A stretch of 64,000 nt of DNA from Bacillota bacterium (GTDB lineage: Bacteria; Bacillota; Sulfobacillia; JAJYWN01): assembly GCA_021791495.1 (NCBI GenBank), contig JAJYWN010000060.1, positions 141,591 through 205,590 of the forward strand, given 5' to 3'. The notes under the pieces were generated by a model, which was not told where the DNA came from, did no database searches, and saw only the letters and a list, made by a program, of their open reading frames with translations. Both the position numbers and the translations under genes were made by a program. Each line of letters begins with the position of its first letter. Position 1 is the stretch's first letter. Shown piece by piece: positions 12,979 through 61,765 of the stretch.

Positions 12979-13367
12979 GCTTGAACCCGGGAGCCTCCGA
13001 TGATTGGGGTTTGGCACAGCACGACCTGGTCCTGAACTGCGGTCCTGCCACATTAGGTACGCCTTGCGGCGGTATCTGCTACACCCGTTGGAGTCTCTCG
13101 ACCTTTCCGGGCAGTGGCTTTAGCCAGTACTGGAGCCTCACTTAACAAGGGAGCGGTATTCTGTTTTGCTTCCAGTGTCTGGACATTATACGAGGGTCCG
13201 CGGGCGAAGTTCCATAGGGTCTCGACTCTATTGCGTTTCCGCACCATCAGGGCGTCTACGCTACTTCCCTTGTGCCTGCCGTCAATCCATCAGCCCCGAC
13301 AAGGAAGCTAATTCCACTCCTGGAAAGGGATTCTCTTTGGTTCTCCCCTAATCTTTATCGGGAGGGC

Positions 13368-41810: not shown

Positions 41811-41930
41811 CTCTTTCATCCAGAGGCGGCGGAGGGACAGGCCCGATGATGCCACGGCAACCACTCCCACATTCGGAGGACGGTGCCAATTCCTGCGGAT
41901 CGGCGACCACGGCGGTCCCAAAGATGAGAG
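41811..41930 (+). ncRNA. SAM-I riboswitch (S-box)
   Basis: CUCUUUCAUCcAGAGGCGGcGGAGGGAcaGGCCCGAUGAuGCCacGGCAACC...GGUGCCAAUUCCUGCgG...AAAGAUGAGAG matches the S-box consensus blocks. P1 is CUCUUUCAUC/GAUGAGAG. Confidence 0.9.
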
Positions 41931-44589: not shown

Positions 44590-45327
44590 CTAAAGCCTCA
44601 TATACTTGAAAACCCTCTCGGGGATCATCCGAATGCCCAACATGATCCAATACCAGAAGCCAGGCACGTAGAATACGTCTCTTCCGGACTGGATCCCGCG
44701 CACAACTCTCTCTGCAACCCGTTCAGGGGTAGCGACCAATGGTCCCGGACGGACAACCCCGTAGGTCATCTTGGTATCTACAACGCCGAGGAGAACTGTC
44801 ACGACCCGGACCTGTGATCGGGCCATACGGCTTCGGAGACCTTGCAGGAAAGTGACCAATGCAGCTTTAGCTGAGCCATACATGTAGTTGCTCTGTCGCC
44901 CCCGGAGTGCCGCGACAGATGCCAGCGCGCAAATGAAACCTGCATCACGTTCTCCCAGATAACTGGCGGCAAGGTGAAGCACAGAGACATAGGACGAATA
45001 GTTCACGTCGATTACCTTTCGGGCTTCCTTTATACTGCTCTCCGCCTCATTCTGGCTACCCATGTAGCCGTGGCATACGATGACCCCAGTCAAACTAACA
45101 CCCCATGGCTCATCCTCAAACAGAAGATGGTGGGATTCGTACGCGTCGGCCTCAAACGCGCGTACGGCAGTCCGCACACCAAACCGGATGGCCAGATCCG
45201 CCGCAAGGCATTTCAAGTCTGCCGTATCCCTACCAGCCAGGACAAGGTCCCACTTCCGCCGGGCGAACGAAACCGCGATCGCCCGGGCAATCCCAGATGT
45301 CGCTCCCACTATCAGAACGCTGCCCAC
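44590..45327 (-). CDS. SDR family oxidoreductase; DprE2-like by context (follows DprE1 with a 1-nt stop/start overlap)
   Basis: VLIVGATSGIARAIAVSFARR is a TGxxxGxG-type NAD(P)-binding motif. The protein is 245 aa. Confidence 0.75.
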   Translation of the reverse strand: MGSVLIVGATSGIARAIAVSFARRKWDLVLAGRDTADLKCLAADLAIRFGVRTAVRAFEADAYESHHLLFEDEPWGVSLTGVIVCHGYMGSQNEAESSIKEARKVIDVNYSSYVSVLHLAASYLGERDAGFICALASVAALRGRQSNYMYGSAKAALVTFLQGLRSRMARSQVRVVTVLLGVVDTKMTYGVVRPGPLVATPERVAERVVRGIQSGRDVFYVPGFWYWIMLGIRMIPERVFKYMRL

Positions 45328-46727
45328 TATGCCTCCATGATTCCAAGCCTTCGTGCCATCGACGAAGAGAATAGATGGTTCGGGTCTACATGGCTCTTGA
45401 TCTCCTGAAACTGCCCCAGGCGCGGATACATCTCGCGAAACACATCGCGTTTCAGCACGGAATCCTTTGCGAGGTAGACTCGCCCGCCGTTTTCCAGGAC
45501 AACCCCGTCCAGGCGGTTCAGAAGCGCCTCCACTTCCGGTCCGCGAAACGGAAGGTCCAGAGCCAGCGTAAAACCACGCTTCGGAAAACTGAGGAGGCCC
45601 TGCCCCTCCGGACCAAGACTCTTCAGAACAGCGAGGAAGGAGGATGCTCTCGCTGCCGAAAGCATCTCTAGGATGCGGGTCATCCCGCGGAGACTGGTTT
45701 CCGGAGGCAGAACAACCTGGTACTGAACGAATCCACTCCGTCCATACATGCGGTTCCAGTCCAGAATGGCGTCAAGCGGGTAGAAGAATGACTCAAGATG
45801 AACCAGTCGCTGGCCACTACCGTGTCTTCTGAAGTAGACCTCGTTGAATGCCCCGATAGTTGCGGAGTTCAAAGTTCCTGCAGGCAGATAGAAAGGGATC
45901 CGCAGGAACGGGTTCCGGCTGGGTTTCAGCGTCTCGGGAGCGGGATCCGGAGCCGGGTTTCCAAGCATCAGCACGGAACGGCCCAGGCTTCTGCCACCCT
46001 TGAGGCAGTCAATCCAGGCGACAGAGTACTGATACTCCTTCTCCGTAGTCGTGAACATCTCCAACGCCTCATCCAGGTTCCTTGCTCGTAGATACTTGAC
46101 CGAAAACAGAGCCGAGTGGATGCGGACTAAGCGTAGACGGACTGTCAGGATGAACCCTGTCAGGCCGATCCCGCCGACGGTCGCCCAGAATAGGTACGGG
46201 TGGGACTCGCGGGAACAGGTGAGGATTTCACCAGAGGCCAACATCAACCGAAAACTGATGATGCAGTTGGAAAAGGCACCGTCTCGATGGTGGTTCTTGC
46301 CGTGAACATCGTTAGCCACAGCGCCACCCACCGTGACGTGCTTGGTTCCCGGCGTAACGGGCAAGAAGAAACCCCGCGGCAAGAACGTCTGTAGGATGTG
46401 GGCCAGGCTGACGCCGGCCTCGCATTCCAGAACTCCCGTTTCCGGGTCAAAGGACAAGAACCGGTTCAGGTGGGTCAGGAGGACCGTGGCGCCGTCACCG
46501 TTCACCGCTGAGTCGCCATAGCTCCTCCCGAGACCGCGTGCCAAGAGGGAGGAGATCCGGTCATAGGTCAAGAGCTGCTCGGTCTCAGTGGCACTTTCAG
46601 GACGGTAGATCTCGGAGGTCTGCCGCGAGTGGTTTCCCCACCCGGAGATCTCGGCTGTGACAGATCTCAGCACCGGCAACACTCCCTTTTGCACAGTGTT
46701 AGGCATATACGAGACAAATGACGGCAA
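45327..46727 (-). CDS. dprE1: Decaprenylphosphoryl-beta-D-ribose 2'-oxidase-like FAD-dependent oxidoreductase (DprE1 family)
   Basis: The DprE1 signature is VTPGTKHVTVGGAVANDVHGKNHH, with an FAD_binding_4 N-terminus (RGLGRSYGDSA). The start is probably at an internal ATG near 46706. Confidence 0.8.
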   Translation of the reverse strand: MPSFVSYMPNTVQKGVLPVLRSVTAEISGWGNHSRQTSEIYRPESATETEQLLTYDRISSLLARGLGRSYGDSAVNGDGATVLLTHLNRFLSFDPETGVLECEAGVSLAHILQTFLPRGFFLPVTPGTKHVTVGGAVANDVHGKNHHRDGAFSNCIISFRLMLASGEILTCSRESHPYLFWATVGGIGLTGFILTVRLRLVRIHSALFSVKYLRARNLDEALEMFTTTEKEYQYSVAWIDCLKGGRSLGRSVLMLGNPAPDPAPETLKPSRNPFLRIPFYLPAGTLNSATIGAFNEVYFRRHGSGQRLVHLESFFYPLDAILDWNRMYGRSGFVQYQVVLPPETSLRGMTRILEMLSAARASSFLAVLKSLGPEGQGLLSFPKRGFTLALDLPFRGPEVEALLNRLDGVVLENGGRVYLAKDSVLKRDVFREMYPRLGQFQEIKSHVDPNHLFSSSMARRLGIMEA

Positions 46728-47586
46728 CGCCCCAGAGCAACAGGTTAGTTAGCAAAGGCCGGTCGGTGAGGATCGCTTCTTCAGGACTACCGCTCAGGTC
46801 GGTGCGATGCACGAGATAGAGATACCGGAAAAGCCCGTAGATCACGAACGGAATCGTCCACATCATGTTGTAGTTGTGGGTGGCGAAGAAGGTATACAGG
46901 GAATATGCCGTAATCGTGCTGCCGCTTAGGATGCTGAGGAACTGGTCAAGCAACTCGATGGAGTAGGAGTCCAGGACTTTACGGTGGTCACTGCCGGTTG
47001 TCAAGAGCTCTGTGCGCCGTTTGCCGAAGGCCAGGAAAAGAGAGAGAAGCAGCGTGCACACGAACAGCCAAGGGGAGATGGCAACGTTCACCGCTACGGC
47101 GCCTGCCCATGCGCGCATGATAAACCCGAACGCAACAATCATCGCATCTACAATGAAAACATGCTTCAGATGGAACGAGTAAGCCAGATTAACAAAAAAG
47201 TAGATTGCTGTGACGGCCGCAAAACGCCATGACAGAAAGGCCGCCAGAGGAACCCACACAACCGTCAAAAGAACGGCAAAGAGCAAAGCCACCCTAGGAC
47301 TGACGGCTCCTGAAGGAATCGGGCGCTTTCGCTTCTCCGGATGGAGCCGGTCCCGATCTGCATCCGCAATATCGTTGATCACGTAGACCGAGCTTGATAC
47401 GAGACAGAAGGCCAGAAAGCCCTGAAGACTGGGCGCCAGAGTCTGAAACAGAACGCCGGCGAACACCGGACCGGCAAGAAGGAACCCGTTCTTGATCCAT
47501 TGCTTCGGGCGCATTAGGCGCACTAACCCGAGCCAAGGATTGTGGAAGCGACTTATTGTGTCGGAAGTACCCTCAGGGTCGCACAC
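46699..47586 (-). CDS. UbiA-family decaprenyl-phosphate 5-phosphoribosyltransferase-like prenyltransferase (DPPR synthase, Rv3806c-type)
   Basis: LMRPKQWIKNGFLLAGPVFAG..NDIADADRDRLHPEKRKRPIPSG. The protein is polytopic. Confidence 0.75.
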   Translation of the reverse strand: MCDPEGTSDTISRFHNPWLGLVRLMRPKQWIKNGFLLAGPVFAGVLFQTLAPSLQGFLAFCLVSSSVYVINDIADADRDRLHPEKRKRPIPSGAVSPRVALLFAVLLTVVWVPLAAFLSWRFAAVTAIYFFVNLAYSFHLKHVFIVDAMIVAFGFIMRAWAGAVAVNVAISPWLFVCTLLLSLFLAFGKRRTELLTTGSDHRKVLDSYSIELLDQFLSILSGSTITAYSLYTFFATHNYNMMWTIPFVIYGLFRYLYLVHRTDLSGSPEEAILTDRPLLTNLLLWGVAVICLVYA

Positions 47587-50446: not shown

Positions 50447-51238
50447 ATGTACAACGAAGAGGAATCCATCCCACTCCTCCGCGCCGACCTGGCGCGGGTC
50501 CAGGGTGTCTTAGTCTCCCACATCGTTGCTGTGGACGATGGCAGTACCGACCGAACCCTCGAACTCCTGGAGGAATGGGCCCTGGACGAGCCGCGCCTGC
50601 GCGTGGTCTCTTACCACCCCAACCGTGGCCTACCCGGCGCCATCCTGGCCGGGTTCCGCGAGGCGGTGGAACTGGGAGCGGGCACCGGAGCGGAGGCTCA
50701 CGGAGGCGAAGACGTCGTCGTCACCATGGACTCCGACGCCAGCCACCCCATCTCCTTGATCCCCGAAATGGTCAGGCGGCTCGCCGCCGGCGCAGACATC
50801 GTTATCGCCTCGCGCCATGCCCCTGGGGCTGCCCAGTTCGGCCTGGCCTGGTACCGTCAGGTGTTCAGCTGGGGCGCCTCGCTCCTCATGCGCCTAGCCT
50901 ATCCCCTGCGCGGCGTACGCGATTACTCGACGAACTACCGGGCCTACCGCGGCGCCCTTCTCCTTGAAGCCCTGAACCGCAGCCCCTCCGGCCGCCTGGC
51001 CGCGGCGCGAGACTTCTCCGGCGTCGTGGAGATGCTTCTCCGCCTGTGCAGCCTGGGCCCGAAGGTGGCAGAGGTGCCCCTGGAACTCCATTACGAACGG
51101 AAGAAATCGCCCAGCAAGGCACAAGTAACGCGGATGATCACCGGCTACTTCCGGCTGGCCCTGAAGAAGAAGACCCGCTCCGCGACGGGTGTGTGCCTTC
51201 CCCTCCTCGACGGGGAGGGTAGCAAGGCTGACAGATAG
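50447..51238 (+). CDS. GT2 polyprenyl-phosphate sugar synthase (Ppm1/GtrB/ArnC-like); the first ATG lies after the beta1 strand
   Basis: PMYNEEESIP..VAVDDGSTDRT...VVTMDSDASHP are the DxD/DAD-type motifs. The upstream in-frame sequence LVFIVVLVLP looks like the missing beta1 strand but has no canonical start codon. Confidence 0.8.
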   Translation: MYNEEESIPLLRADLARVQGVLVSHIVAVDDGSTDRTLELLEEWALDEPRLRVVSYHPNRGLPGAILAGFREAVELGAGTGAEAHGGEDVVVTMDSDASHPISLIPEMVRRLAAGADIVIASRHAPGAAQFGLAWYRQVFSWGASLLMRLAYPLRGVRDYSTNYRAYRGALLLEALNRSPSGRLAAARDFSGVVEMLLRLCSLGPKVAEVPLELHYERKKSPSKAQVTRMITGYFRLALKKKTRSATGVCLPLLDGEGSKADR

Positions 51239-51272: not shown

Positions 51273-51635
51273 CTACCTGATGGCGAGAATCACGCCTACC
51301 AAAATGAGTCCAATCCCCGCGACCCTGGCCAAACCCACCGTTTCACCAAGAAAGGCCCAGGAAAGAACCGGTACGAAGGCGTAGGATAGGGCGATCATGG
51401 GCTGGGCCCGTGACAGGTCCATCCGCGACAGAACACCCAGCCACAACATCATGCTGGAGGCGAACAGGACCACCCCGCCGATGATGGCGGGCTGTTGGGC
51501 CACCTTGAGGACGGTGGCCGCCCATTCGCCGCCCCCGTACCGTACGCCCCCCATCCGGTTAACGCCGATTTTCAGGAGAAACTGCCCCACACTCCCTAAA
51601 AGGACAGACAACAAAGCCGTGAGTAGCGCGCTCAT
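51273..51635 (-). CDS. ArnE/ArnF-like small EamA/SMR-type transporter, a putative lipid-linked sugar flippase subunit
   Basis: The 120-aa four-TM protein has LLSVLLGSVGQFLLKIG and MDLSRAQPMIALSYAFVPVLSWAFLGE, which align to the ArnE pattern. Confidence 0.65.
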   Translation of the reverse strand: MSALLTALLSVLLGSVGQFLLKIGVNRMGGVRYGGGEWAATVLKVAQQPAIIGGVVLFASSMMLWLGVLSRMDLSRAQPMIALSYAFVPVLSWAFLGETVGLARVAGIGLILVGVILAIR

Positions 51636-51661
51636 TTGGTCCCCCAGTTGCCTCTTTCCGC

Positions 51662-53212
51662 TTATGCTCCGACTCGTCCTTTGGCGTGCCGCCCGCCGCT
51701 GCGGCCTGCGCGACCCGGAGCGGCACCCGCCGCCGTTCGGGCGGTCTCCGACGTCTCAGCCACTCTAGCAGGTCCGCGCTTCCGAGGTGCCTTGAAGAAG
51801 CCTCTTACCCCACCGACCAGCGAGGTGAAAGCCCGGGCCACTCGCTGCCCTTCATTCTCCGCCGACCAACTGGCCGGCTCGTTTAGGGCGTAGATCATGC
51901 CCGACAGGCGCGGCCACCACAGGACGAACCGGTAAATGGGCATGGCGAAGGGCAGGAACCACCACGACCATACTCTCACACCGTATTCCTTCATCAGAAA
52001 GCCCGCCACAGACACGAGAAAACCCAAGTCAATGAGGACATACAGGAAGTAAGTGATCCATAAGGCCAAGGCCACCAGCGGCAGCGAGTACCCCAGGAAG
52101 AACATGAACGGGATAAGGAAAGTCCAGGTCAGCCGCGGGAAGGAGAGCGTATGATCGCTCAGCAGCAGCCTGCCGACGAAATCCCCCAGCGCGAACGTCC
52201 CGTCCCGCCGGTAGTGCTTCGGATACAGCGAAAGCACCTCCAGCTCGCCCCGCTGCCACCTCAGGCGCTGCGCCAAGAACCGAGTCAGGCTGGAGGTCGG
52301 CTCCACGTAGGCCCGGGCGTCCGGAACACAGACCAGGCGCCACCGTCCTCCCATCAGGTTCCTTATGTCGAAACTGACCTTGGTGTCCTCTGACACTGTG
52401 GTGTCGTCATAGCGGTGGGTTCCCAGGAGCGCCTCCCGGCGGAAGACGGAAAATGCCCCGGACAGGGTGAACAAGGTGTTCCGCAGGGACTGCACCCGCC
52501 GCCCGATGCGGAAAGCGGACAGGTACTCCATGATCTCACAAGCGTTGACGATCTTCCACCACCACCGGGTCTCGGAAGGCACCAGGTCGACCATGATGGA
52601 CCCGCAGGCGCCACCGATCTTGTCGTCGGCGTCAAAAGCCTCCACCATCCGCTGGACGGCGTCGGGGGCCAGGCGGGTGTCGGCGTCCACAGTGAAGATC
52701 AGCGAACCGCGGGCCAGGTATGCCCCTGCGTTCAGGGCTTTCGACTTGCCCTTGGCGACCAGATCGATCCAGGTGACGTTTAGTTCCGCGCATTCCTGCT
52801 GTGCCCGCCCATACATCCGGGCGCTGTGGTCGCTGACTCCGTTCCCGATGCACAGGACCTCCATGGCCCGTGCCGGATAGGTCTGGGCCGACAAGGCCTT
52901 GAGGCAGCGGAGAAGCGATTCCTCCGCGTTATAGACGGGCACCACGATGCTGATGAACCTTGGGGGTGGAGTGCTGCGACGCCGCAGGCGTTCTTGCTCC
53001 AACTCCGCCTCGGCCGCGCCACTGATCGGGGCGGCGCCACCGGCCAGGGCGGCGCCCGGCTCGGCCTCTTCCTTCTTCGGAGCCGGCGCCCGGCTGGGCC
53101 GGCGCAGCATCAGGAGCAGATACGACAAGGCCGTCAGGCCATCCACGGCCATGGGGACCAGGGCCCAGATGGCCCAGAACAGGAGAAAGCGCACGATCGC
53201 ATCGCTCAGCAC
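51662..53212 (-). CDS. Membrane-integral processive GT2 glycosyltransferase (PgaC/IcaA/NodC/cellulose-synthase-like)
   Basis: SIVVPVYNAEE, a DAD motif (FTVDADT) and the processive motif QRLRWQRG are present, with flanking transmembrane helices. The GTG start has a GGAGGAG RBS. Confidence 0.85.
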   Translation of the reverse strand: MLSDAIVRFLLFWAIWALVPMAVDGLTALSYLLLMLRRPSRAPAPKKEEAEPGAALAGGAAPISGAAEAELEQERLRRRSTPPPRFISIVVPVYNAEESLLRCLKALSAQTYPARAMEVLCIGNGVSDHSARMYGRAQQECAELNVTWIDLVAKGKSKALNAGAYLARGSLIFTVDADTRLAPDAVQRMVEAFDADDKIGGACGSIMVDLVPSETRWWWKIVNACEIMEYLSAFRIGRRVQSLRNTLFTLSGAFSVFRREALLGTHRYDDTTVSEDTKVSFDIRNLMGGRWRLVCVPDARAYVEPTSSLTRFLAQRLRWQRGELEVLSLYPKHYRRDGTFALGDFVGRLLLSDHTLSFPRLTWTFLIPFMFFLGYSLPLVALALWITYFLYVLIDLGFLVSVAGFLMKEYGVRVWSWWFLPFAMPIYRFVLWWPRLSGMIYALNEPASWSAENEGQRVARAFTSLVGGVRGFFKAPRKRGPARVAETSETARTAAGAAPGRAGRSGGRHAKGRVGA

Positions 53213-53216
53213 GCCG

Positions 53217-53807
53217 CTACTCCTCCAAGATCCGCTTGCGCAGAGTCTCCATGGTCGTCCGGGTGAAGGTATACCAGTATAAGTTGATCACCAGGGCGAA
53301 GAACACCGCCCGGCCCACAACCGTATGTGCCAGGTAGATCGCATCCTTGCCAAAATGCGAAATCATGGCTACGATGACCACGATCCGGACCACGTTGACG
53401 GCGAACGTGAAGAGCAGCCCAGCAGTCAGGTACCCCACCTTACTTATCAACGGCAGTCCCCGGTAGAACAGGACCAGACCGAGAAAGACGATGGACTCCA
53501 GGAGTCCCGAACACTCAATATCGATCTCCACCGCCGTCCACCCGGCTTTCTGGTAGACGATGAGTACCAGTAGTGTCCCGGGGGCGTTGAAGAAAACCCT
53601 GGTCGGAATACCTATCGCGTCACCGACATAGTGCGCCGCCACCGCGCCCGCCGTCTCGACCAGGGATTCCAACGCGGAACCCCGCACGAAGTAGACGAAG
53701 ATGAGAGTGAAGCCCACCGCCCCCACCACGTAGGACAAAAGCCAGGCCCTGGCCCGGCGGAGGAACAGGTAGACCGCCGCCCATAGGGCGATGGCAAGGT
53801 AAATCAT
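53217..53807 (-). CDS. Exosortase/archaeosortase-family protein (XrtG-like)
   Basis: The seven-TM protein has the Cys motif VEIDIECSGLLS and a conserved Arg (NVVRIVVIV). The start ATG overlaps the upstream stop (ATGA). Confidence 0.55.
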   Translation of the reverse strand: MIYLAIALWAAVYLFLRRARAWLLSYVVGAVGFTLIFVYFVRGSALESLVETAGAVAAHYVGDAIGIPTRVFFNAPGTLLVLIVYQKAGWTAVEIDIECSGLLESIVFLGLVLFYRGLPLISKVGYLTAGLLFTFAVNVVRIVVIVAMISHFGKDAIYLAHTVVGRAVFFALVINLYWYTFTRTTMETLRKRILEE

Positions 53808-54598
53808 GCCGCCCCACCCAGCCTTCGCCGGTGACGGGCGCGGCCCGCCGCCACCAAAGCCACCGCCAACCCCGCCAGTGCCGCCTGGGCCCACGGCGGA
53901 AGCGTCGGGATGGGGGCCCATTGGAGGTCGCCCTCGTCCGGAAGACGGTCGGCCCAGTCCTCTTCCACCATCTCCTCCCATTCCTCGAACGACGCCGGGA
54001 ACCGGCCGCCAAACTCACCCTCGGACAGGTGATTCTTGTCCGTGGCGAAGAGGACCATCCGGATGACGTACCCCGGCCCGGTCCCGATCTCATTGAAAGT
54101 CACATAGAACTCGGCCCGGCTCCCGCCGTCCTCGGCGCTTTCGCCCCAGCGACCCTGCCGTCGGCCCACCCGGACTTCTCCGCGCCAGACTTCCACCGTC
54201 ACCTGACCGCGCTCCTCAGACTTGTCGGGTTCATAGGTGATGTCCACGACGCGGTCATTGGCGTCGTCGAACCGGCCGTTATTGTCCGTGTCGATAAACA
54301 GGCAGTAGTAGACTTCCTTCTTCTGGTCCTGATGGTTCTCGGGCTCGTAGCGCTCGATCATGAAGTAGAGCCGGTCCTGGTTCGGGTTGTTCGCCCAGTA
54401 CAAGTTCTCCAGATCGTAGGTGTCGTGATGGGCGTCCCTTGGGTCTGCCAGGTGCGCCCGTCCCTCCCAGTCCTCAAAGGAGCCGTCCATCACGATGGAG
54501 CCGGCGGCGAAGGCGCGATTAGGCGCTGATGCCACGAGAAGCAGGAGCAGAGCCGCCAGAAGGGCTGCCGCTCTTCCCACGCGCCCTCTTCTTCCCAT
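53804..54598 (-). CDS. Secreted protein with an N-terminal signal peptide and a C-terminal motif-TM-Arg-cluster tail (sorting-signal-like)
   Basis: The signal peptide is MGRRGRVGRAAALLAALLLLLVASAPNRAFA. The C-terminus reads ..QWAPIPTLPPWAQAALAGLAVALVAAGRARHRRR. It is coupled to the exosortase gene. Confidence 0.55.
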   Translation of the reverse strand: MGRRGRVGRAAALLAALLLLLVASAPNRAFAAGSIVMDGSFEDWEGRAHLADPRDAHHDTYDLENLYWANNPNQDRLYFMIERYEPENHQDQKKEVYYCLFIDTDNNGRFDDANDRVVDITYEPDKSEERGQVTVEVWRGEVRVGRRQGRWGESAEDGGSRAEFYVTFNEIGTGPGYVIRMVLFATDKNHLSEGEFGGRFPASFEEWEEMVEEDWADRLPDEGDLQWAPIPTLPPWAQAALAGLAVALVAAGRARHRRRLGGAA

Positions 54599-57500
54599 GC
54601 GCCACACCTCCCCTCGCGGACTGCGCACGCAGCAGCAGGAACGCCGCCAAGGCCAGGGTCACCGCGGAAATCAGCCCACCGGCCAGCATCTCGCGGGGCG
54701 GCTCCGGCTTTACGGAGATCGTGAAGCGCCCGGGAACGAGGGCCAAGGTCAAGAGGTGTTCCCGCTCCCGGGCCGGGACCGGGTCGCCGTTCGCTTCCAC
54801 GGTCAGGTTATTCCGGAAAGCTACGGGCACAGTCACCGCCCAGGAGGAGGTGTTCTCGGGGACTGTCAGACCGAAGGAGTAGCCGTGGGCCGTGGCCGAG
54901 TATCCGTCCAGAGGCAGCAGCTTGGACTCCGGAACGGCATCGGCTTTCAAGCCCAGCAGGTCGGACAAGAGAGCGGTGGCCACCGGATCACCGGTGAGGA
55001 AGGCGTGGAAAGGCAGGTTACCTCCCACGAAATACACGTCTTTTCCTCCGACATCCTTCGTGCCTATCAGAGCCGTCTTCTCACCCAGGTGCGAGAAGTA
55101 CAGGTCAGTGCGCGTCAAACTCTGGGGCGACAGACCTTTCCAGGGATCATAGGTCGGGTCGAAGGGCGCCAGGCGCAAAGGCTCTCCCCCCTGGTCGGTG
55201 CGGTACGCTACCAAGGGTTGGTACAGGTTCACCGGCTCGCCGGTCACGCCGAAGAGCGACGGCCGCCGCGACAAGGTGTCTTCCGGCAACCCTTGGAGGT
55301 CGACAATGAGCTTCCCGCCTCCCAAGGTATACTGGCGCAGGACCTCCTCAGCCTTCGCCTTATTCCGCCAGAGGGCTCCCGACACCACGACTGTCTTATA
55401 GCGGGCCAGCGTGGCCGGCGAGTAGGAATCGACAAACATATCCGAGCCCACTTCCAGGGCGGGGAAGACCATGGCCAGGTTGGACGCGTAGCGCCCGATG
55501 GCTAACCCCTGGTAACTGGAGAGAATGGCGTAGGGTCCGGTCGCGTCGGAGGCGAGGAGGATCACCTCGCTGGAACGCCACTTTTCGCGGTATCCGAGGA
55601 TCTCCGCCTCGGCCAGGAACTCGTCCAGACGCGGTGCCACCAAATCCCGTCGGACCACCAGGTGCGTGGCGCCAAGCTCCCGCAGTTCGTTGAACATAAA
55701 GGACCAACGGTGCTCCTTCAGCGCGCGGTTTACCCACACGATGTTCTGGGCCGTGGTCGCCCCTTGCCAGGCCCATCCGAACACTTGCTCCCGGCCGCCT
55801 TCCACGCCCACCAGGTATGCGGCAGTGGAGCCGAAACCGCTGAGGTCAAGGGTGGCTTCCCGCCAGCCGCTGCCGGCGGGAAGCTCGCGCACCGCCCGCT
55901 CCACCACGGTGGGTTTGGGCCGCGTCGAGATCAGCCTGAGGGTCGGGACGGCATCGAGGACCAAGAGGGCGATGAGGAGCAGGAGAATGTAGGCCGCCGC
56001 CTTGCGCCCTCCCAGAGGGCGCCCTGAGGTGGGCTGGAGCAAAGCGAGGTAGAACATGGCCGGCGCCGCGCTGGCCATGTAAATGGGCCAGAGCAGGTGA
56101 TGCAGAGGAAGGGAGTTGTACAAGGGGCGGAGGAGCGGCGTGGTGACGGCGACGGTCAAGATGCCGGTGACCAGCGCCGCCCGGCTGAGCCCTTGGCGCT
56201 GCTTCCAGGTGATCAGGACCCAGAGGGCCACGGGGACCAGGGCCAGCCCCCAATAGAAGATCTCGGGGTTCGTCAGGCGCAGGAACGGGTTGAAGCTTTC
56301 CGTGACCGGGAAATACTGGATGGACGAGGTGACCGCCGCGGCGTCGACCGAAACGATACCGGCGCGCAAGGCGGGGAGGAGCCACCAGGCCGACGCGGCG
56401 ATGCCCGCGAAAGTCACCGCGAGGCCGCGCCCGACGTCCCTGGCCCTCAGCCCCCCCACCACGGTCCACGCCGCGGCCAGGACCGTCTGGATGACGAAAA
56501 AGCCGGCGGCGATCATGGCGTGAGTGAGCACCAGGAGGGCATCGATCCCGATAAGGACAAAGGCTGAGCGGGGCCAGTCCTGTCTCTCCAACACGTTCAG
56601 GAAGAAGTGCAGCGCCACGGGGAAAAGGGCCGTGGCCAGGGCCCGGGGCAGGTTGCCCTCGGACATGGCCACCCGCACGTGGTCGGGCCAGATCATCCAG
56701 AGGCCGGCGGCGATGAGGGCGCCCTCAGAGCCAAGGCGCTTCCGGTGCGGCAGCCAACCCAGTGCCCCGATGACCGCGGCAACGGCCACGTAGGCTCCGC
56801 CGGCCCGGAAGGGGTCGGCCAGCACGGCCATGATGGCGGCCAAGACGTAATACGGCAGGGGCGCCCAGTAACGGAAGGGTTCCACGCCATTGTACCAGGC
56901 GGGGTTGAACAAGGGGAACAGGTTCCCCCGGGCGATTTCCTCTTTCAGGAACTTGGCTTTGGCGATGTGGGCCCAGGTATCCGATCCCCAGGGGTACTGC
57001 TCCGCCGCCGGAGGCCAGATGATCTTGTGGTATAGTACCGCCCCGATCAGGGCCAGGAAGGCCCCCCAGAGCAGACGGCGCCACCTCGGAACGGGCTTGT
57101 GCCGCTCCAGAGCGCGGGACGGGATGGACAGGGGGTCGTACTCCCCGGCCCCGGGTGGCATCAGGCGCATCAGTATCTTCCGTCGCCGGCGCGACGGGAA
57201 CTTTGAGCCGGCCAGGGCGGCGCCGACCAACCTGCCGTCGGCTTCGGCTCCCGCTCCGGTCCCCGGACCGGCACTGGCTTCGGTTTCCGCGTCAGACGGT
57301 GCGGAGGCCGGCGCGGCGCTCGATACGGGGAATGAAACCGGCGCTTGAGGCGCCGGCGGTATCTCCGGGCGCGTGATGCCGGTCCCCGTCGCTGCCGGCG
57401 GACCCTCGCCGGGCTGGTCGAAGTCGCTGGACGGACGCTGGCCCGGGCTGGGTGGCACCTCACCGTAAACCGGCCGGTCGGGAGGCTCTTCGCCCTGAAC

Positions 57501-58028
57501 GGTGGTGGTCAGGCGGGTGCTGTATGGCATCTGCACCGGCGGAGCGAAAGGCGACCCCTCCGTGCTCACGCCGGTGGTGGAGACGACCAGGCCCGTCTGC
57601 GGGGTGTGAACTACCTTTACGCTACGGACGGGTGATTCACGAATAAGGACCGAACACAAGCCGGCACTATACTCAGGCAGGACCGCCAAAAGGCGGTGGT
57701 ACAGGTAAAACGCCAGGTTCTCCACGGACGGATTGACTTTCCGGAAGTTCGCCAGCTCGTTCAGGACCCGGCCGTCGAAGGGGCTGATCTGGGCCTTGAT
57801 TTCCGCTTCCAGATCGGCAAAGGGTATAGTATTATCCTCCGGTGGGACTAGTTCTACCTCCATGCTGCATGAATGCTTATGCAATGGACCAAGGTTCCCA
57901 CCAACCGCCACTTGATGCCGAAGCTCAAAGAAGACGGTGACGGTGATCCTCAGTTCCGGCCGGCCATACTCCAACCGTGCGTTCCTTCCCGTCCGTAACA
58001 ATGCCCGGAGGGGGTCGGCCAAGCCCAC
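54519..58028 (-). CDS. 1169-aa protein: N-terminal QueD/6-pyruvoyl-tetrahydropterin-synthase-fold domain, then a Pro-rich linker, then a ~13-TM domain and a large extracytoplasmic domain (PTPS-related membrane protein)
   Basis: LRITVTVFFELRHQV...GPLHKHSCSMEVEL...IPFADLEAEIKAQISPFDGRVLNEL...SVENLAFYLYHRLLAVLP aligns block-for-block with QueD (AAHRL, LHGHS, DFAELK, ENPTSE). An alternative TTG start near 57974 has a GGGAAGGAA RBS. Confidence 0.8.
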   Translation of the reverse strand: MGLADPLRALLRTGRNARLEYGRPELRITVTVFFELRHQVAVGGNLGPLHKHSCSMEVELVPPEDNTIPFADLEAEIKAQISPFDGRVLNELANFRKVNPSVENLAFYLYHRLLAVLPEYSAGLCSVLIRESPVRSVKVVHTPQTGLVVSTTGVSTEGSPFAPPVQMPYSTRLTTTVQGEEPPDRPVYGEVPPSPGQRPSSDFDQPGEGPPAATGTGITRPEIPPAPQAPVSFPVSSAAPASAPSDAETEASAGPGTGAGAEADGRLVGAALAGSKFPSRRRRKILMRLMPPGAGEYDPLSIPSRALERHKPVPRWRRLLWGAFLALIGAVLYHKIIWPPAAEQYPWGSDTWAHIAKAKFLKEEIARGNLFPLFNPAWYNGVEPFRYWAPLPYYVLAAIMAVLADPFRAGGAYVAVAAVIGALGWLPHRKRLGSEGALIAAGLWMIWPDHVRVAMSEGNLPRALATALFPVALHFFLNVLERQDWPRSAFVLIGIDALLVLTHAMIAAGFFVIQTVLAAAWTVVGGLRARDVGRGLAVTFAGIAASAWWLLPALRAGIVSVDAAAVTSSIQYFPVTESFNPFLRLTNPEIFYWGLALVPVALWVLITWKQRQGLSRAALVTGILTVAVTTPLLRPLYNSLPLHHLLWPIYMASAAPAMFYLALLQPTSGRPLGGRKAAAYILLLLIALLVLDAVPTLRLISTRPKPTVVERAVRELPAGSGWREATLDLSGFGSTAAYLVGVEGGREQVFGWAWQGATTAQNIVWVNRALKEHRWSFMFNELRELGATHLVVRRDLVAPRLDEFLAEAEILGYREKWRSSEVILLASDATGPYAILSSYQGLAIGRYASNLAMVFPALEVGSDMFVDSYSPATLARYKTVVVSGALWRNKAKAEEVLRQYTLGGGKLIVDLQGLPEDTLSRRPSLFGVTGEPVNLYQPLVAYRTDQGGEPLRLAPFDPTYDPWKGLSPQSLTRTDLYFSHLGEKTALIGTKDVGGKDVYFVGGNLPFHAFLTGDPVATALLSDLLGLKADAVPESKLLPLDGYSATAHGYSFGLTVPENTSSWAVTVPVAFRNNLTVEANGDPVPAREREHLLTLALVPGRFTISVKPEPPREMLAGGLISAVTLALAAFLLLRAQSARGGVAHGKKRARGKSGSPSGGSAPASRGISA

Positions 58029-60001: not shown

Positions 60002-60922
60002 TTGATCGCCGGTGGTACGGGGTTCCTGGGAAAACCTCTGATCAAGGAGTTGCAGGCGGGTGGGCACCGGGTAACGGTGCTCACCCGCTCTCCCGACGGC
60101 GCCCGGCGGGCGCTGGGCCAGGCGGGACTTGTCGGAACGTTGCCTGACCACGATGTGGCCATCGCGGCCTGGACCGACCTTGCCGGGGCCCTGAGAGGGG
60201 TCGACGGTGTCGTCAACCTGGCCGGCGCGTCCATTGGCGAAGGCCGCTGGACGCCCCAGCGAAAGGCCGAGCTGGTGGACAGCCGCCTCAGTTCCACCCG
60301 GGCCATCGTCTCGGCCTTGGGGCGGGTGGAACCACGGCCCAAGGTGCTGGTGAACGCGTCGGCTGTCGGCTACTATGGGGACCGGGCGGAGAAAGTGGAC
60401 GAGGGCTCCGCTCCGGGAGGCGACTTTCTGGCGGGGCTGTGCCAAAAGTGGGAAGAGTTCGCCGAGGGCGCTACTTCCTCGGGTGTGAGGGTGGTCCGCG
60501 TCCGGACCGGAGTGGCGCTGGCAAAGGATGGTGGTGCCCTGAGCCGGATGCTTCTGCCTTTCAAGCTTTTCGCCGGGGGCCCCATGGGCTCGGGCCGGCA
60601 GGGTTTCCCCTGGGTGCACCGGGCGGACGTGGTCGGCCTGATCCGGTTCGCCCTCGAGCACGATGAGGTGTCGGGCCCCTTGAACGCCGTAGCTCCCGAT
60701 ATGGTAGACAACGCGGGCTTCTCGCGCGCCCTGGGGCGGGCCTTGCATCGCCCGTCCTGGCTGCCCCTACCCGGTTTCGCCCTGCGCCTGGCTCTGGGGG
60801 AAATGGCGGGCCCCCTTCTCCTCTCGGGTCAGTTTGTAAGGCCGGCGGCGGCCGAGAAGTTCGGCTATCACTGGCGTTTCCCGAAACTGGTCGGGGCCCT
60901 GGACGACCTGTTCAGGCAGTAG
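60002..60922 (+). CDS. TIGR01777 family epimerase (YfcH-like SDR with a DUF1731 C-terminus)
   Basis: The GTG at 60002 follows an AGGAGGAAG RBS. The sequence is MHVLIAGGTGFLGKPLIKEL...WRFPKL. Confidence 0.85.
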   Translation: MIAGGTGFLGKPLIKELQAGGHRVTVLTRSPDGARRALGQAGLVGTLPDHDVAIAAWTDLAGALRGVDGVVNLAGASIGEGRWTPQRKAELVDSRLSSTRAIVSALGRVEPRPKVLVNASAVGYYGDRAEKVDEGSAPGGDFLAGLCQKWEEFAEGATSSGVRVVRVRTGVALAKDGGALSRMLLPFKLFAGGPMGSGRQGFPWVHRADVVGLIRFALEHDEVSGPLNAVAPDMVDNAGFSRALGRALHRPSWLPLPGFALRLALGEMAGPLLLSGQFVRPAAAEKFGYHWRFPKLVGALDDLFRQ

Positions 60923-61325
60923 CAGGTGACAGCCAAAGCACCTTTAGGTCTCCCTTTCTCTCCAGGCTCCTGAACTCCGAGTCGCCGGTAACCAAGGTAG
61001 CATCGCGTTCCTGGGCTAACGCGGCTGCAAAGCAGTCGGCATAGGAAAGTCCACCGGCCACCTTGAGTCTCGCGGCCGTCTTCACTCGGTTCCAAGTCGG
61101 CTCCACGACTTCAACGTTGGGACTCCGCAGAGTTCTGGCTACGACTTCTTCGGCTATCGCTTCAGAACGGTGGCGAAGGATGATGTAGAACACTTCGCCC
61201 AAGTTGATGGCGCTGATGGCAATGAGGACGTCGTCCGAGGCTAAGATTGATGCGACTTGAGAACCACCGGGCTCACCGTTTAAGAAGGCCAACAAGGCTG
61301 AGCCGTCAAGAACATACTCATCCAT
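60912..61325 (-). CDS. vapC: PIN-domain toxin VapC
   Basis: LDGSALLAF...VLIAISAINLGEVFY..LSYADCFAAALAQERDATLVTGDSEF is the acidic quartet pattern. Confidence 0.85.
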   Translation of the reverse strand: MDEYVLDGSALLAFLNGEPGGSQVASILASDDVLIAISAINLGEVFYIILRHRSEAIAEEVVARTLRSPNVEVVEPTWNRVKTAARLKVAGGLSYADCFAAALAQERDATLVTGDSEFRSLERKGDLKVLWLSPATA

Positions 61326-61566
61326 GCCGACTATCTTCCTTCGCCCGGTCGCGTCGTCTCTCTTCTAGCAAAGCCTCTGTTAGGCTACTGCCTTCCTTTA
61401 GTGCTCCCTGGAGGGCCAACAGAGGATGGCGCTCCAACGGCTCCAGAATAATCTTGCCATCAGCCAATACGATCGATAGCTGGTCCCCTTGACGTAGGTC
61501 GAGCTTCTCCCGGACAGTCCTTGGGATCACAATCTGTCCCTTCGAGGATATCTTGATCGCCGGCAT
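61318..61566 (-). CDS. vapB: AbrB/SpoVT-type antitoxin VapB
   Basis: MPAIKISSKGQIVIPRTVREKLDLRQGDQL is a swapped-hairpin motif. The RBS is GGAGGTGG. It overlaps the vapC gene by 8 nt. Confidence 0.8.
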   Translation of the reverse strand: MPAIKISSKGQIVIPRTVREKLDLRQGDQLSIVLADGKIILEPLERHPLLALQGALKEGSSLTEALLEERRRDRAKEDSRHG

Positions 61567-61765
61567 GTACTCCACCTCCAAGGCCGTCTTACCTGACCGT
61601 GATTCTTATGCGTGGTACTCACTTACACTGTAGAGTGTAAGCCGGCCTCCGTGCTTAGGCAAGAGCCGCCAAGGGATTTTCGTCCGTAGCGCGAACCTTC
61701 TTACCCATCGTCCATGCTCGTGCTCACTTCACTACCCACAAACTCCGGGGAGGCAACGGAAAACG

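Follow-up and report, generated by a model that had tools for sequence, protein, structure and literature searches.

A PTPS-fold domain lacking the catalytic Cys and His of QueD, fused to a GT-C-type membrane protein in an XrtG exosortase cassette of a Bacillota genome

We analysed a stretch of 64,000 nucleotides (the window) from the metagenome-assembled genome (MAG) of a Bacillota bacterium of the Sulfobacillia (GCA_021791495.1, contig JAJYWN010000060.1, positions 141,591 to 205,590), in which a minus-strand open reading frame (ORF) at 54519-58028 encodes a protein of 1169 amino acids with a domain resembling 6-pyruvoyl-tetrahydropterin synthase (PTPS) and QueD at the N-terminus of a large membrane protein. 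An earlier, sequence-only reading had drawn attention to the segment 57560-58028, corresponding to residues 1-156, as a PTPS-fold domain that keeps its zinc ligands and has lost the catalytic Cys. We find that residues 28-140 form a genuine PTPS/QueD-fold domain, which is of the TIGR03112 type, and that in the TIGR03112-type family, as judged from its alignment, the metal site persists along with all the residues of pterin recognition, whereas those for proton abstraction have gone. This domain does not appear to be a QueD/PTPS enzyme, and it accompanies a membrane glycosyltransferase of the GT-C fold in cassettes of the exosortase XrtG. The architecture as such is not new, since it is an already catalogued, never characterised part of the Gram-positive XrtG glycosylation cluster; what we add is incremental, namely the residue analysis, the quantified linkage to the cassette (79 of 83 loci) and the correction of a start codon.

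The assignment of the fold draws on profiles, structure prediction and structural comparison. Pfam places PF01242 (PTPS) on residues 28-138/139 with an E-value of 3e-12 when the entire protein is searched and of 1e-13 when the domain is taken by itself (46.9-51.6 bits, gathering score 22.4). The QueD equivalog TIGR03367 is not passed (23.4-27.6 bits, cutoff 89.25), and the best NCBIfam model for the domain is TIGR03112, which it matches at 57.3-61.9 bits, still under the curated cutoff of 69.35. That cutoff is passed by the relatives P0003 (72.5), P0027 (82.6) and P0042 (128.6) and missed by P0007 (58.2) and P0011 (66.1) (P and L numbers denote related proteins and loci), and by these scores the window protein and its subclade are divergent-edge members of the TIGR03112 family. 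A word-indexed homologue search using the 155-residue domain alone gave no matches; an exhaustive HMMER search of 1.84 billion representatives returned 298 at E ≤ 1e-3. Against PDB sequences, phmmer found Pyrococcus horikoshii PH0634 (2dj6) and Escherichia coli QueD with 22-28% identity, and its residue alignments reproduced the four blocks pointed out from the sequence (ELRHQV with AAHRL, PLHKHS with LHGHS, PFADLEAEIKA with DFAELKAAFK, and NPSVENLA with NPTSEVLA). Modelled with AlphaFold2 (AF2) from 28 homologous domains, residues 18-150 reach a predicted local distance difference test (pLDDT) of 90.3 and a predicted template modelling score of 0.83, and they adopt the beta-beta-alpha-alpha-beta-beta topology of the T-fold. 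All 36 Foldseek matches in the PDB with E ≤ 0.001 belong to the PTPS/QueD family, the best being 2dj6_B (TM-scores 0.78/0.90, rmsd 1.7 Å, probability 1.00), and more distant T-fold enzymes (QueF-like, DHNA) rank after them with far weaker scores. Because a T-fold was found for residues 18-150, the observation made from the sequence stands; Pfam recognises both halves of the protein, PF01242 at the N-terminus and PF10131 in the membrane part. Set aside as spurious were sub-threshold NICE-1 and blaNDM matches, which fall in the low-complexity linker and transmembrane (TM) region, a eukaryotic cadherin-like match (P0125) that was dropped as a homologue, and a WAV3_C match in the N-terminal extension of one relative.

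When 190 domains from the HMMER search were aligned together with E. coli QueD, the zinc-ligand histidines H16, H31 and H33 of QueD fell on H38, H50 and H52 of the window protein, and the glutamates E110 and E86 on E131 and E103, whose PTPS equivalents we take, as established structural knowledge, to bind the pterin. All five residues are invariant in 40 of 40 fused homologues and 98-99% conserved among 184 family members, so that the predicted metal site and pterin-anchor motif (three His, E131 and P100-S-V-E103, corresponding to PTxE) are present. The catalytic Cys and His have no counterpart, and this holds family-wide and not only in the window protein: C27 of QueD aligns with L46, and D70-H71 with D85-G86. 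The C27 column is occupied by K/Q/L/P/R/A; Cys is found there in none of 62 fusions, in one of 71 proteins of middle length and in five short alignment rows, including the E. coli QueD reference, which look canonical QueD-like. In the H71 column we find G/N/D across the family, and in the D70-equivalent column E/Q/D/N. The earlier account of a kept His triad and a lost Cys was thus correct, and it was incomplete, since the catalytic His of the Cys-Asp-His triad is lost as well.

Active PTPS proteins carry the signatures CxxxHGH (PTPS-I), CxxxxxHGH (PTPS-II) or ExxHGH (PTPS-III) (PMC5041015). None of these base motifs is found in the window protein in the QueD alignment: the sequence at this place reads G-G-N-L-G-P-L-H-K-H, where -4 is Leu, -3 is Gly and neither Cys nor Glu occurs. 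Since Gly is conserved three places ahead of HxH, the PTPS-III alternative is absent too. Nor does the 184-member alignment contain any further conserved Cys, His, Asp or Glu column that might supply a substitute base. Such a residue pattern, with the metal site and both glutamates kept and proton abstraction gone, predicts binding without PTPS/QueD chemistry. The subclade of the window protein has HxHSCS where the remaining family has HxHSW; by strand alternation Cys54 (57867-57869, minus strand) would lie on the same strand face as H50 and H52, and it could be a subclade-specific pocket or metal-proximal residue.

Behind the T-fold domain, the full-length AF2 model (pLDDT 80) shows a disordered linker, a helical bundle, a confidently predicted soluble domain and a final TM helix. 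The linker comprises about 170 residues and varies in length among homologues. PF10131 covers residues 385-1008 (E 3e-127) and is assigned to the Pfam clan GT-C (CL0111) (PMC7801869). For the helical bundle, Foldseek returned AftD, yeast and human STT3, DPY19, ArnT, AftA and PglB, all with probability 1.00, and the membrane module is, as modelled, a GT-C-fold glycosyltransferase; the domain is therefore indeed N-terminal to a polytopic membrane protein, as had been claimed. Among fused homologues D350 and H354 are invariant in the motif PWGSD(350)TWxH directly after TM1, and the first outer loop is the place of the catalytic acidic residue in GT-C enzymes. The outer domain (residues 720-1108) has a weak fold likeness to glycoside-hydrolase accessory domains in Foldseek. 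A signal peptide is absent from the protein, and an Arg-rich stretch precedes TM1; together with the basic C-terminal tail this would, by the positive-inside rule, put both termini and hence the T-fold domain on the cytoplasmic face, with which the position of the Asp-containing loop outside is consistent. The earlier proposal of a cytoplasmic appendage agrees with this predicted topology.

The association recurs in many genomes. We scanned 185,579 species genomes with two peptide motifs of the GT-C module, taken from the full-length alignment, and not with the PTPS domain; the scan returned 80 loci, nearly all from Clostridia, with Syntrophomonas wolfei, Clostridium cavendishii, C. guangxiense, C. 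neuense, Anaerosporobacter mobilis, Ruminiclostridium sufflavum, Wukongibacter and Caloranaerobacter as cultured carriers. Among 83 loci, the PTPS-like domain is present in 79, either fused only (47), fused with an extra separate copy (4) or as a separate adjacent gene (28), while XrtG is found in 74, a TIGR03111-like family 2 glycosyltransferase (GT2) in 71 and a small GT2 in 55. Of the four loci without the domain, L010, L015 and L058 are apparently short or truncated contigs, judged from match positions, and in L043 the match starts at query residue 55, so that the domain may be partly present there. Separate copies have a length of 120-170 residues and carry the signature FYLNAxH...HPHTWE...NPTLEN...SETPTR; stand-alone copies from Clostridium reach 122-162 bits on TIGR03112, and that of C. 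cavendishii (L044) has 119 residues. Two separate copies end in a TM helix and others are tethered to the membrane through an N-terminal one. The linkage to the cassette suggests that the domain is functionally coupled to it, and we count both this linkage and the repeated tethering in favour of the regulatory or assembly role discussed below. Many fused proteins and many stand-alone relatives of 300-475 residues also have an N-terminal extension of 100-340 residues, rich in Glu, Lys, Leu and Ala and without a Pfam match, which by eye only looks coiled-coil-like (P0012-P0032 and, in the 'mid' class, P0054-P0194).

Further fusions involve the exosortase and its presumed substrate. The sorting-signal domain is fused to XrtG in about 25 relatives, including many Syntrophomonas and Peptococcaceae loci (ORFs of about 400 residues, e.g., L006, L012 and L039), and to the C-terminus of the GT-C protein in L037 and L038. 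In L030 (9455-14146), PTPS-like domain, GT-C module, substrate domain and XrtG form a single stop-free ORF of 1564 amino acids. It is uncommon for a sortase to be joined to what is presumably its own substrate, and this arrangement points to cleavage in cis; the pattern of fusion and fission argues that T-fold domain, GT-C, substrate and XrtG act together.

What the domain contributes to this machinery can be approached from its conserved pocket. We give about an even chance to the reading that it is a cytoplasmic module binding a metal and a guanine- or pterin-like ligand, and that it regulates and/or oligomerises the GT-C/XrtG complex. The ligand class is suggested by the fact that T-fold proteins anchor guanine- and pterin-like rings with exactly the conserved Glu. 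At the cytoplasmic face the domain would bind metal and ligand, would probably oligomerise into a trimer or hexamer, as T-fold proteins do, and might thereby regulate or assemble the GT-C/XrtG machinery; the coiled-coil-like extensions of relatives fit an assembly role. The small GT2 would load a sugar onto polyprenyl phosphate, the ArnE/F-like protein would flip the polyprenyl-linked sugar, and the GT-C would pass it on, at the outer side of the membrane, to the XrtG substrate protein or a polymer made by the PgaC-like GT2. This sugar flow is drawn by analogy to ArnC/EF/T and to the Pgf system of Streptococcus mutans, from weak profile matches and the known roles of those components, and a polyprenyl-phosphate-linked sugar is a putative donor of the GT-C module, suggested by the context of a PgfS/ArnC-like GT2 and an ArnE/F-like flippase.

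Several points weigh against a ligand-binding regulatory module. A His3-Zn centre with nearby carboxylates (E103 and D85) is equally expected of a divergent hydrolase or lyase, and the free-standing copies of 120-170 residues resemble ordinary small enzymes. Neither a riboswitch, be it for pterin, preQ1 or anything else, nor a gene related to pterins, queuosine or nucleotides was found linked to the cassette, so that the ligand class has to be taken from T-fold precedent. Upstream of the gene no riboswitch or cis-regulatory RNA was detected in the window, the single match being a chance snoRNA (E 0.17), and none was detected in six related loci from cultured species. Moreover, XrtG systems of the Lactobacillaceae have been described without a PTPS-like domain (PMC12854382), which is therefore not essential to XrtG function generally. 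Of the sequence-only interpretation, which had favoured sensing over catalysis, the part that is upheld is the absence of catalysis in the QueD sense, with the acid/base residues gone and not replaced, and sensing is plausible; its further suggestion of a coupling between pterins or 7-deazaguanine-like molecules and envelope assembly found no backing in the genes and riboswitches around the cassette. A more specific and rather improbable version of the receptor idea would make the TIGR03112 domain a repurposed T-fold pseudoenzyme, i.e., a cytoplasmic zinc-dependent guanine/pterin receptor that gates the GT-C/XrtG sorting complex through oligomerisation. To our knowledge there is no reported case of a PTPS fold serving signalling instead of catalysis, and such a receptor, if true, would be a previously undescribed class of regulatory domain for envelope glycosylation in Clostridia.

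The near-absolute conservation of metal site and pocket among sequences that are only 20-30% identical would also be expected if the domain were a divergent enzyme, a possibility that we consider open to doubt yet worth keeping in mind. Its His3-Zn centre could use a zinc-bound water and/or E103 or D85 as base on a cytoplasmic substrate specific to the cassette. As a candidate activity, by analogy to ArnD in the series ArnC/ArnD/ArnEF/ArnT, it might modify a sugar, lipid-linked or nucleotide-bound, after the small GT2 has made it and before it is flipped. The presence of ArnC-like, ArnE/F-like and ArnT-like (GT-C) components in the cassette and the occurrence of the domain as a free protein of 120-170 residues in 28 loci would suit such a role, and other subfamilies of COG0720 have moved or replaced their base and stayed active (PMC5041015). 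However, among Cys, His, Asp and Glu beyond the metal ligands only the two pterin-binding Glu are conserved and the D70 column varies (E/Q/D/N), a chemistry cannot be proposed from sequence alone, and the very long disordered linker and N-terminal extensions fit a tethered regulatory or assembly module better.

That linker would be equally compatible with clustering by a pure scaffold, in which the T-fold barrel only tri- or hexamerises the GT-C on the cytoplasmic side, with structural zinc and no small molecule. Solved PTPS and QueD structures are, as established, hexamers of two trimers, the matched PDB entries contain 6-12 chains, and many relatives have the coiled-coil-like extension. But a scaffold has no need of the invariant E103 and E131 and of the P-T/S-x-E-N pterin-binding motif, and the zinc of PTPS is catalytic rather than structural; we regard this explanation as quite improbable. 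A genuine QueD/PTPS of queuosine or pterin biosynthesis, fused incidentally, is barely credible in spite of the Pfam match and the PTPS fold, and we regard this function as effectively refuted: TIGR03367 scores of 23-28 bits are far from the cutoff of 89, the PTPS-I, -II and -III signatures and the catalytic His are all missing, and the constant genomic partners are XrtG and glycosyltransferases, not queC, queE or folE. The name '6-pyruvoyl-tetrahydropterin synthase' should consequently not be propagated as a function for these genes. No other component of the XrtG cassette is, like the PTPS-like domain, soluble, easy to purify and equipped with a recognisable small-molecule pocket. Finding its ligand or reaction would open the entire system to direct experiment, including the attachment of the substrate by the exosortase and the products of the glycosyltransferases.

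The histidines also bear on the start of the gene. A deposited protein (P0001; GCA_027335225.1, contig DAHWPC010000084.1) is 100% identical and has 1114 amino acids, starting at M56, the ATG at 57861-57863, which removes the first beta-strands together with H38, H50 and H52. This start lies too far downstream, because homologues of 42-74% identity conserve the upstream strand and the histidines, and at least 37 codons upstream of it are coding; our start analysis thus flags a mis-called start codon in the deposited record. The earliest possible start of the ORF is the GTG at 58026-58028 (minus strand). The likeliest start of the gene, on sequence grounds, is the TTG at codon 19, which would yield the N-terminus 'MEYGRPELRITV' and at which the homologue N-termini MEYRAGGQLRL and MVWDKPELRV align.

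Table 1. Elements of the PTPS/GT-C gene and of the adjoining XrtG cassette, with positions in the window
Element	Position	Strand	Basis or content
Whole ORF	54519-58028	-	PTPS-like domain, disordered linker, GT-C membrane module, outer soluble domain, C-terminal TM anchor
Likely true start codon, TTG, codon 19	57972-57974	-	GGAAGG (Shine-Dalgarno) 9 nt upstream; homologue N-termini
PTPS/QueD-fold (T-fold) domain, residues 28-140	57609-57947	-	PF01242, TIGR03112, AF2, Foldseek (2dj6, 4ntk, 1gtq)
Predicted zinc-ligand histidines H38 (57915-57917), H50 (57879-57881), H52 (57873-57875)	57873-57917	-	QueD alignment
L46, at the position of QueD catalytic Cys27	57891-57893	-	QueD alignment
D85-G86, at the position of QueD D70-H71 (His lost)	57771-57776	-	QueD alignment
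Predicted pterin-binding E103 (57720-57722), E131 (57636-57638)	within 57636-57776	-	QueD alignment
Disordered linker rich in Pro/Ala/Gly/Ser, residues 143-309	57102-57602	-	AF2 pLDDT <50 at 143-278 and 294-309
Predicted GT-C-fold polytopic membrane module, residues 315-700	55929-57086	-	PF10131, Foldseek
Invariant first-outer-loop motif PWGSDTWAH, residues 346-354	56967-56993	-	Homologue alignment
Predicted extracytoplasmic alpha/beta and beta-sandwich domain, residues 720-1108	54705-55871	-	AF2 pLDDT >90
C-terminal TM helix, then Lys/Arg-rich tail	54582-54692	-	AF2 model, sequence
Secreted protein with C-terminal IPTL-CTERM-type sorting signal, presumed XrtG substrate	53804-54628	-	TIGR04174, 23.9 bits (cutoff 20.5)
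Exosortase XrtG	53217-53981	-	TIGR03110, 108.7 bits (cutoff 102.75)
XrtG-associated GT2 (PgaC/NodC-like synthase)	51662-53212	-	TIGR03111, 351 bits, just under cutoff 364; Pfam GT2
ArnE/ArnF-like small flippase (EamA)	51273-51755	-	Pfam/NCBIfam profile matches
Small GT2, polyprenyl-phosphate sugar synthase-like (PgfS/ArnC/dolichyl-P-hexose transferase)	50447-51238	+	Profile scores far below equivalog cutoffs
Second PF10131 GT-C paralogue without PTPS domain, 864 aa	47826-50420	+	PF10131, E 6e-85

The gene heads an XrtG exosortase cassette (Table 1), whose gene order recurs in a relative of 50% identity. The exosortase/glycosylation locus recognised from the sequence is borne out by XrtG, which scores above its cutoff, by the TIGR03111-like GT2 and by the PgfS/ArnC-like GT2 and ArnE/F-like flippase. 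The IPTL-CTERM protein consists of a secreted domain of about 180 residues ending in WAPIPTLPPW, a TM helix and RHRRR. Because all its scores lie far below the equivalog cutoffs, the class given for the small GT2 is a putative one. The second GT-C shares only about 25% identity with the first over the outer domain, has a YfhO-like C-terminal stretch and matches PgfM1 (NCBIfam) weakly; a second GT-C is present in many related cassettes.

Next to the two PF10131 GT-Cs, of which the best structural match is the arabinofuranosyltransferase AftD, lies a trio of genes (44590-47586, minus strand) for a UbiA-type decaprenyl-phosphate phosphoribosyltransferase (above the NCBIfam cutoff), a DprE1-like FAD oxidase (456 bits, cutoff 500) and a DprE2-like short-chain dehydrogenase/reductase. 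From these matches the trio is a predicted polyprenyl-phospho-arabinose-type donor pathway, which is best known from Actinobacteria and is found here in a Bacillota MAG. We rejected it as a conserved part of the cassette, as it is found in just 2-3 of the 83 related loci. Elsewhere in the window, and unrelated to the PTPS fusion, there are two full-length riboswitches above their gathering scores, an M-box (Mg) riboswitch at 12988-13156 (minus strand, 77.6 bits) and a SAM-I riboswitch at 41813-41930 (plus strand, 76 bits). At 60912-61581 (minus strand) a PIN-domain protein (60912-61325, Pfam) overlaps an upstream ORF of 87 residues that looks AbrB/SpoVT-like; by arrangement the two would be a VapBC-type toxin-antitoxin pair, of which only the PIN domain is confirmed. 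Just past the 3' end of the window (L001, 1-2900), the contig continues with a gas-vesicle cluster (GvpA, GvpK, GvpL/F and GvpO), which is a few kb away from the cassette.

The combination of both halves has been named before, and the novelty attributed to it in the sequence-only reading was overstated, although its observation is confirmed and its interpretation partly supported. PF10131 is called 'PTPS_related' membrane protein in Pfam, a name that the annotations of homologues suggest to derive from the PTPS fusion, NCBIfam models the PTPS-like domain as TIGR03112, and homologues appear at NCBI and JGI under the name '6-pyruvoyl-tetrahydropterin synthase-related protein'. Both Clostridia and lactobacilli commonly carry XrtG cassettes. 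CA_C2581 of C. acetobutylicum carries the same annotation (PMC4845359), the XrtG system is a named entity (PMC12854382), and a review of COG0720 distinguishes subfamilies PTPS-I to -VI, none of them membrane-linked (PMC5041015). Our literature search returned no paper on the function of the PTPS-like domain, PF10131, TIGR03112 or COG5617, and nothing on SCO6650.

With the TIGR03112/PF10131 family the window protein shares the two-domain architecture, the XrtG-cassette context and the H...HxH...E pattern without Cys. Fusion or adjacency to PF10131 beside XrtG and a TIGR03111 glycosyltransferase is what we take, from the origin of the model, to be the family-defining context, and it is found in the window (the glycosyltransferase being TIGR03111-like) and in 79 of 83 related loci. 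Unlike typical members, which score 70-162 bits on TIGR03112, the window protein stays below the cutoff at 57-62; in its subclade, E35, L36 and C54 replace the N, A and W of the family. The MAG that encodes the window protein is high in GC, and the protein has a sorting-signal partner of the IPTL type and a predicted polyprenyl-P-arabinose pathway nearby. E. coli QueD (4NTK/4NTM/3QN0) and PH0634 (2DJ6) share with it the T-fold (TM-scores 0.72-0.90), the three His, the E110 equivalent and the NPTxE motif. In contrast to QueD and the PTPS-I/II/III proteins of COG0720, to which identity is 22-28%, it lacks the catalytic Cys (or PTPS-III Glu) and His. Its partner, by fusion or by gene clustering, is a membrane glycosyltransferase, and in none of the examined loci do genes for queuosine or folate accompany it.

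The GT-C fold and the invariant Asp in the first outer loop are shared with AftD, ArnT, STT3/PglB, DPY19 and AftA, and the large outer domain after the TM bundle with AftD and STT3, whereas identity to the solved GT-C structures is 10-16% and none of them matched over the T-fold domain. As in ArnC/ArnEF/ArnT and S. mutans Pgf, which consists of the GT2 PgfS and the membrane glycosyltransferases PgfM1/M2, a small GT2 (best matching PgfS/ArnC) occurs with a membrane GT-C and, as in the Arn series, with an EamA protein (matching ArnF/ArnE in NCBIfam); with all scores far below equivalog cutoffs, this likeness can be read as a 'works like' analogy. The XrtG system of Lactiplantibacillus plantarum comprises a Firmicu-CTERM protein, XrtG and two associated glycosyltransferases (PMC12854382). 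The window resembles it in an XrtG above the cutoff, a TIGR03111-like GT2 and an adjacent sorting-signal protein, which is of the IPTL-CTERM instead of the Firmicu-CTERM type, and the Clostridia-type cassette goes beyond it in having a flippase, the PTPS-like domain and either one or two GT-Cs of PF10131.

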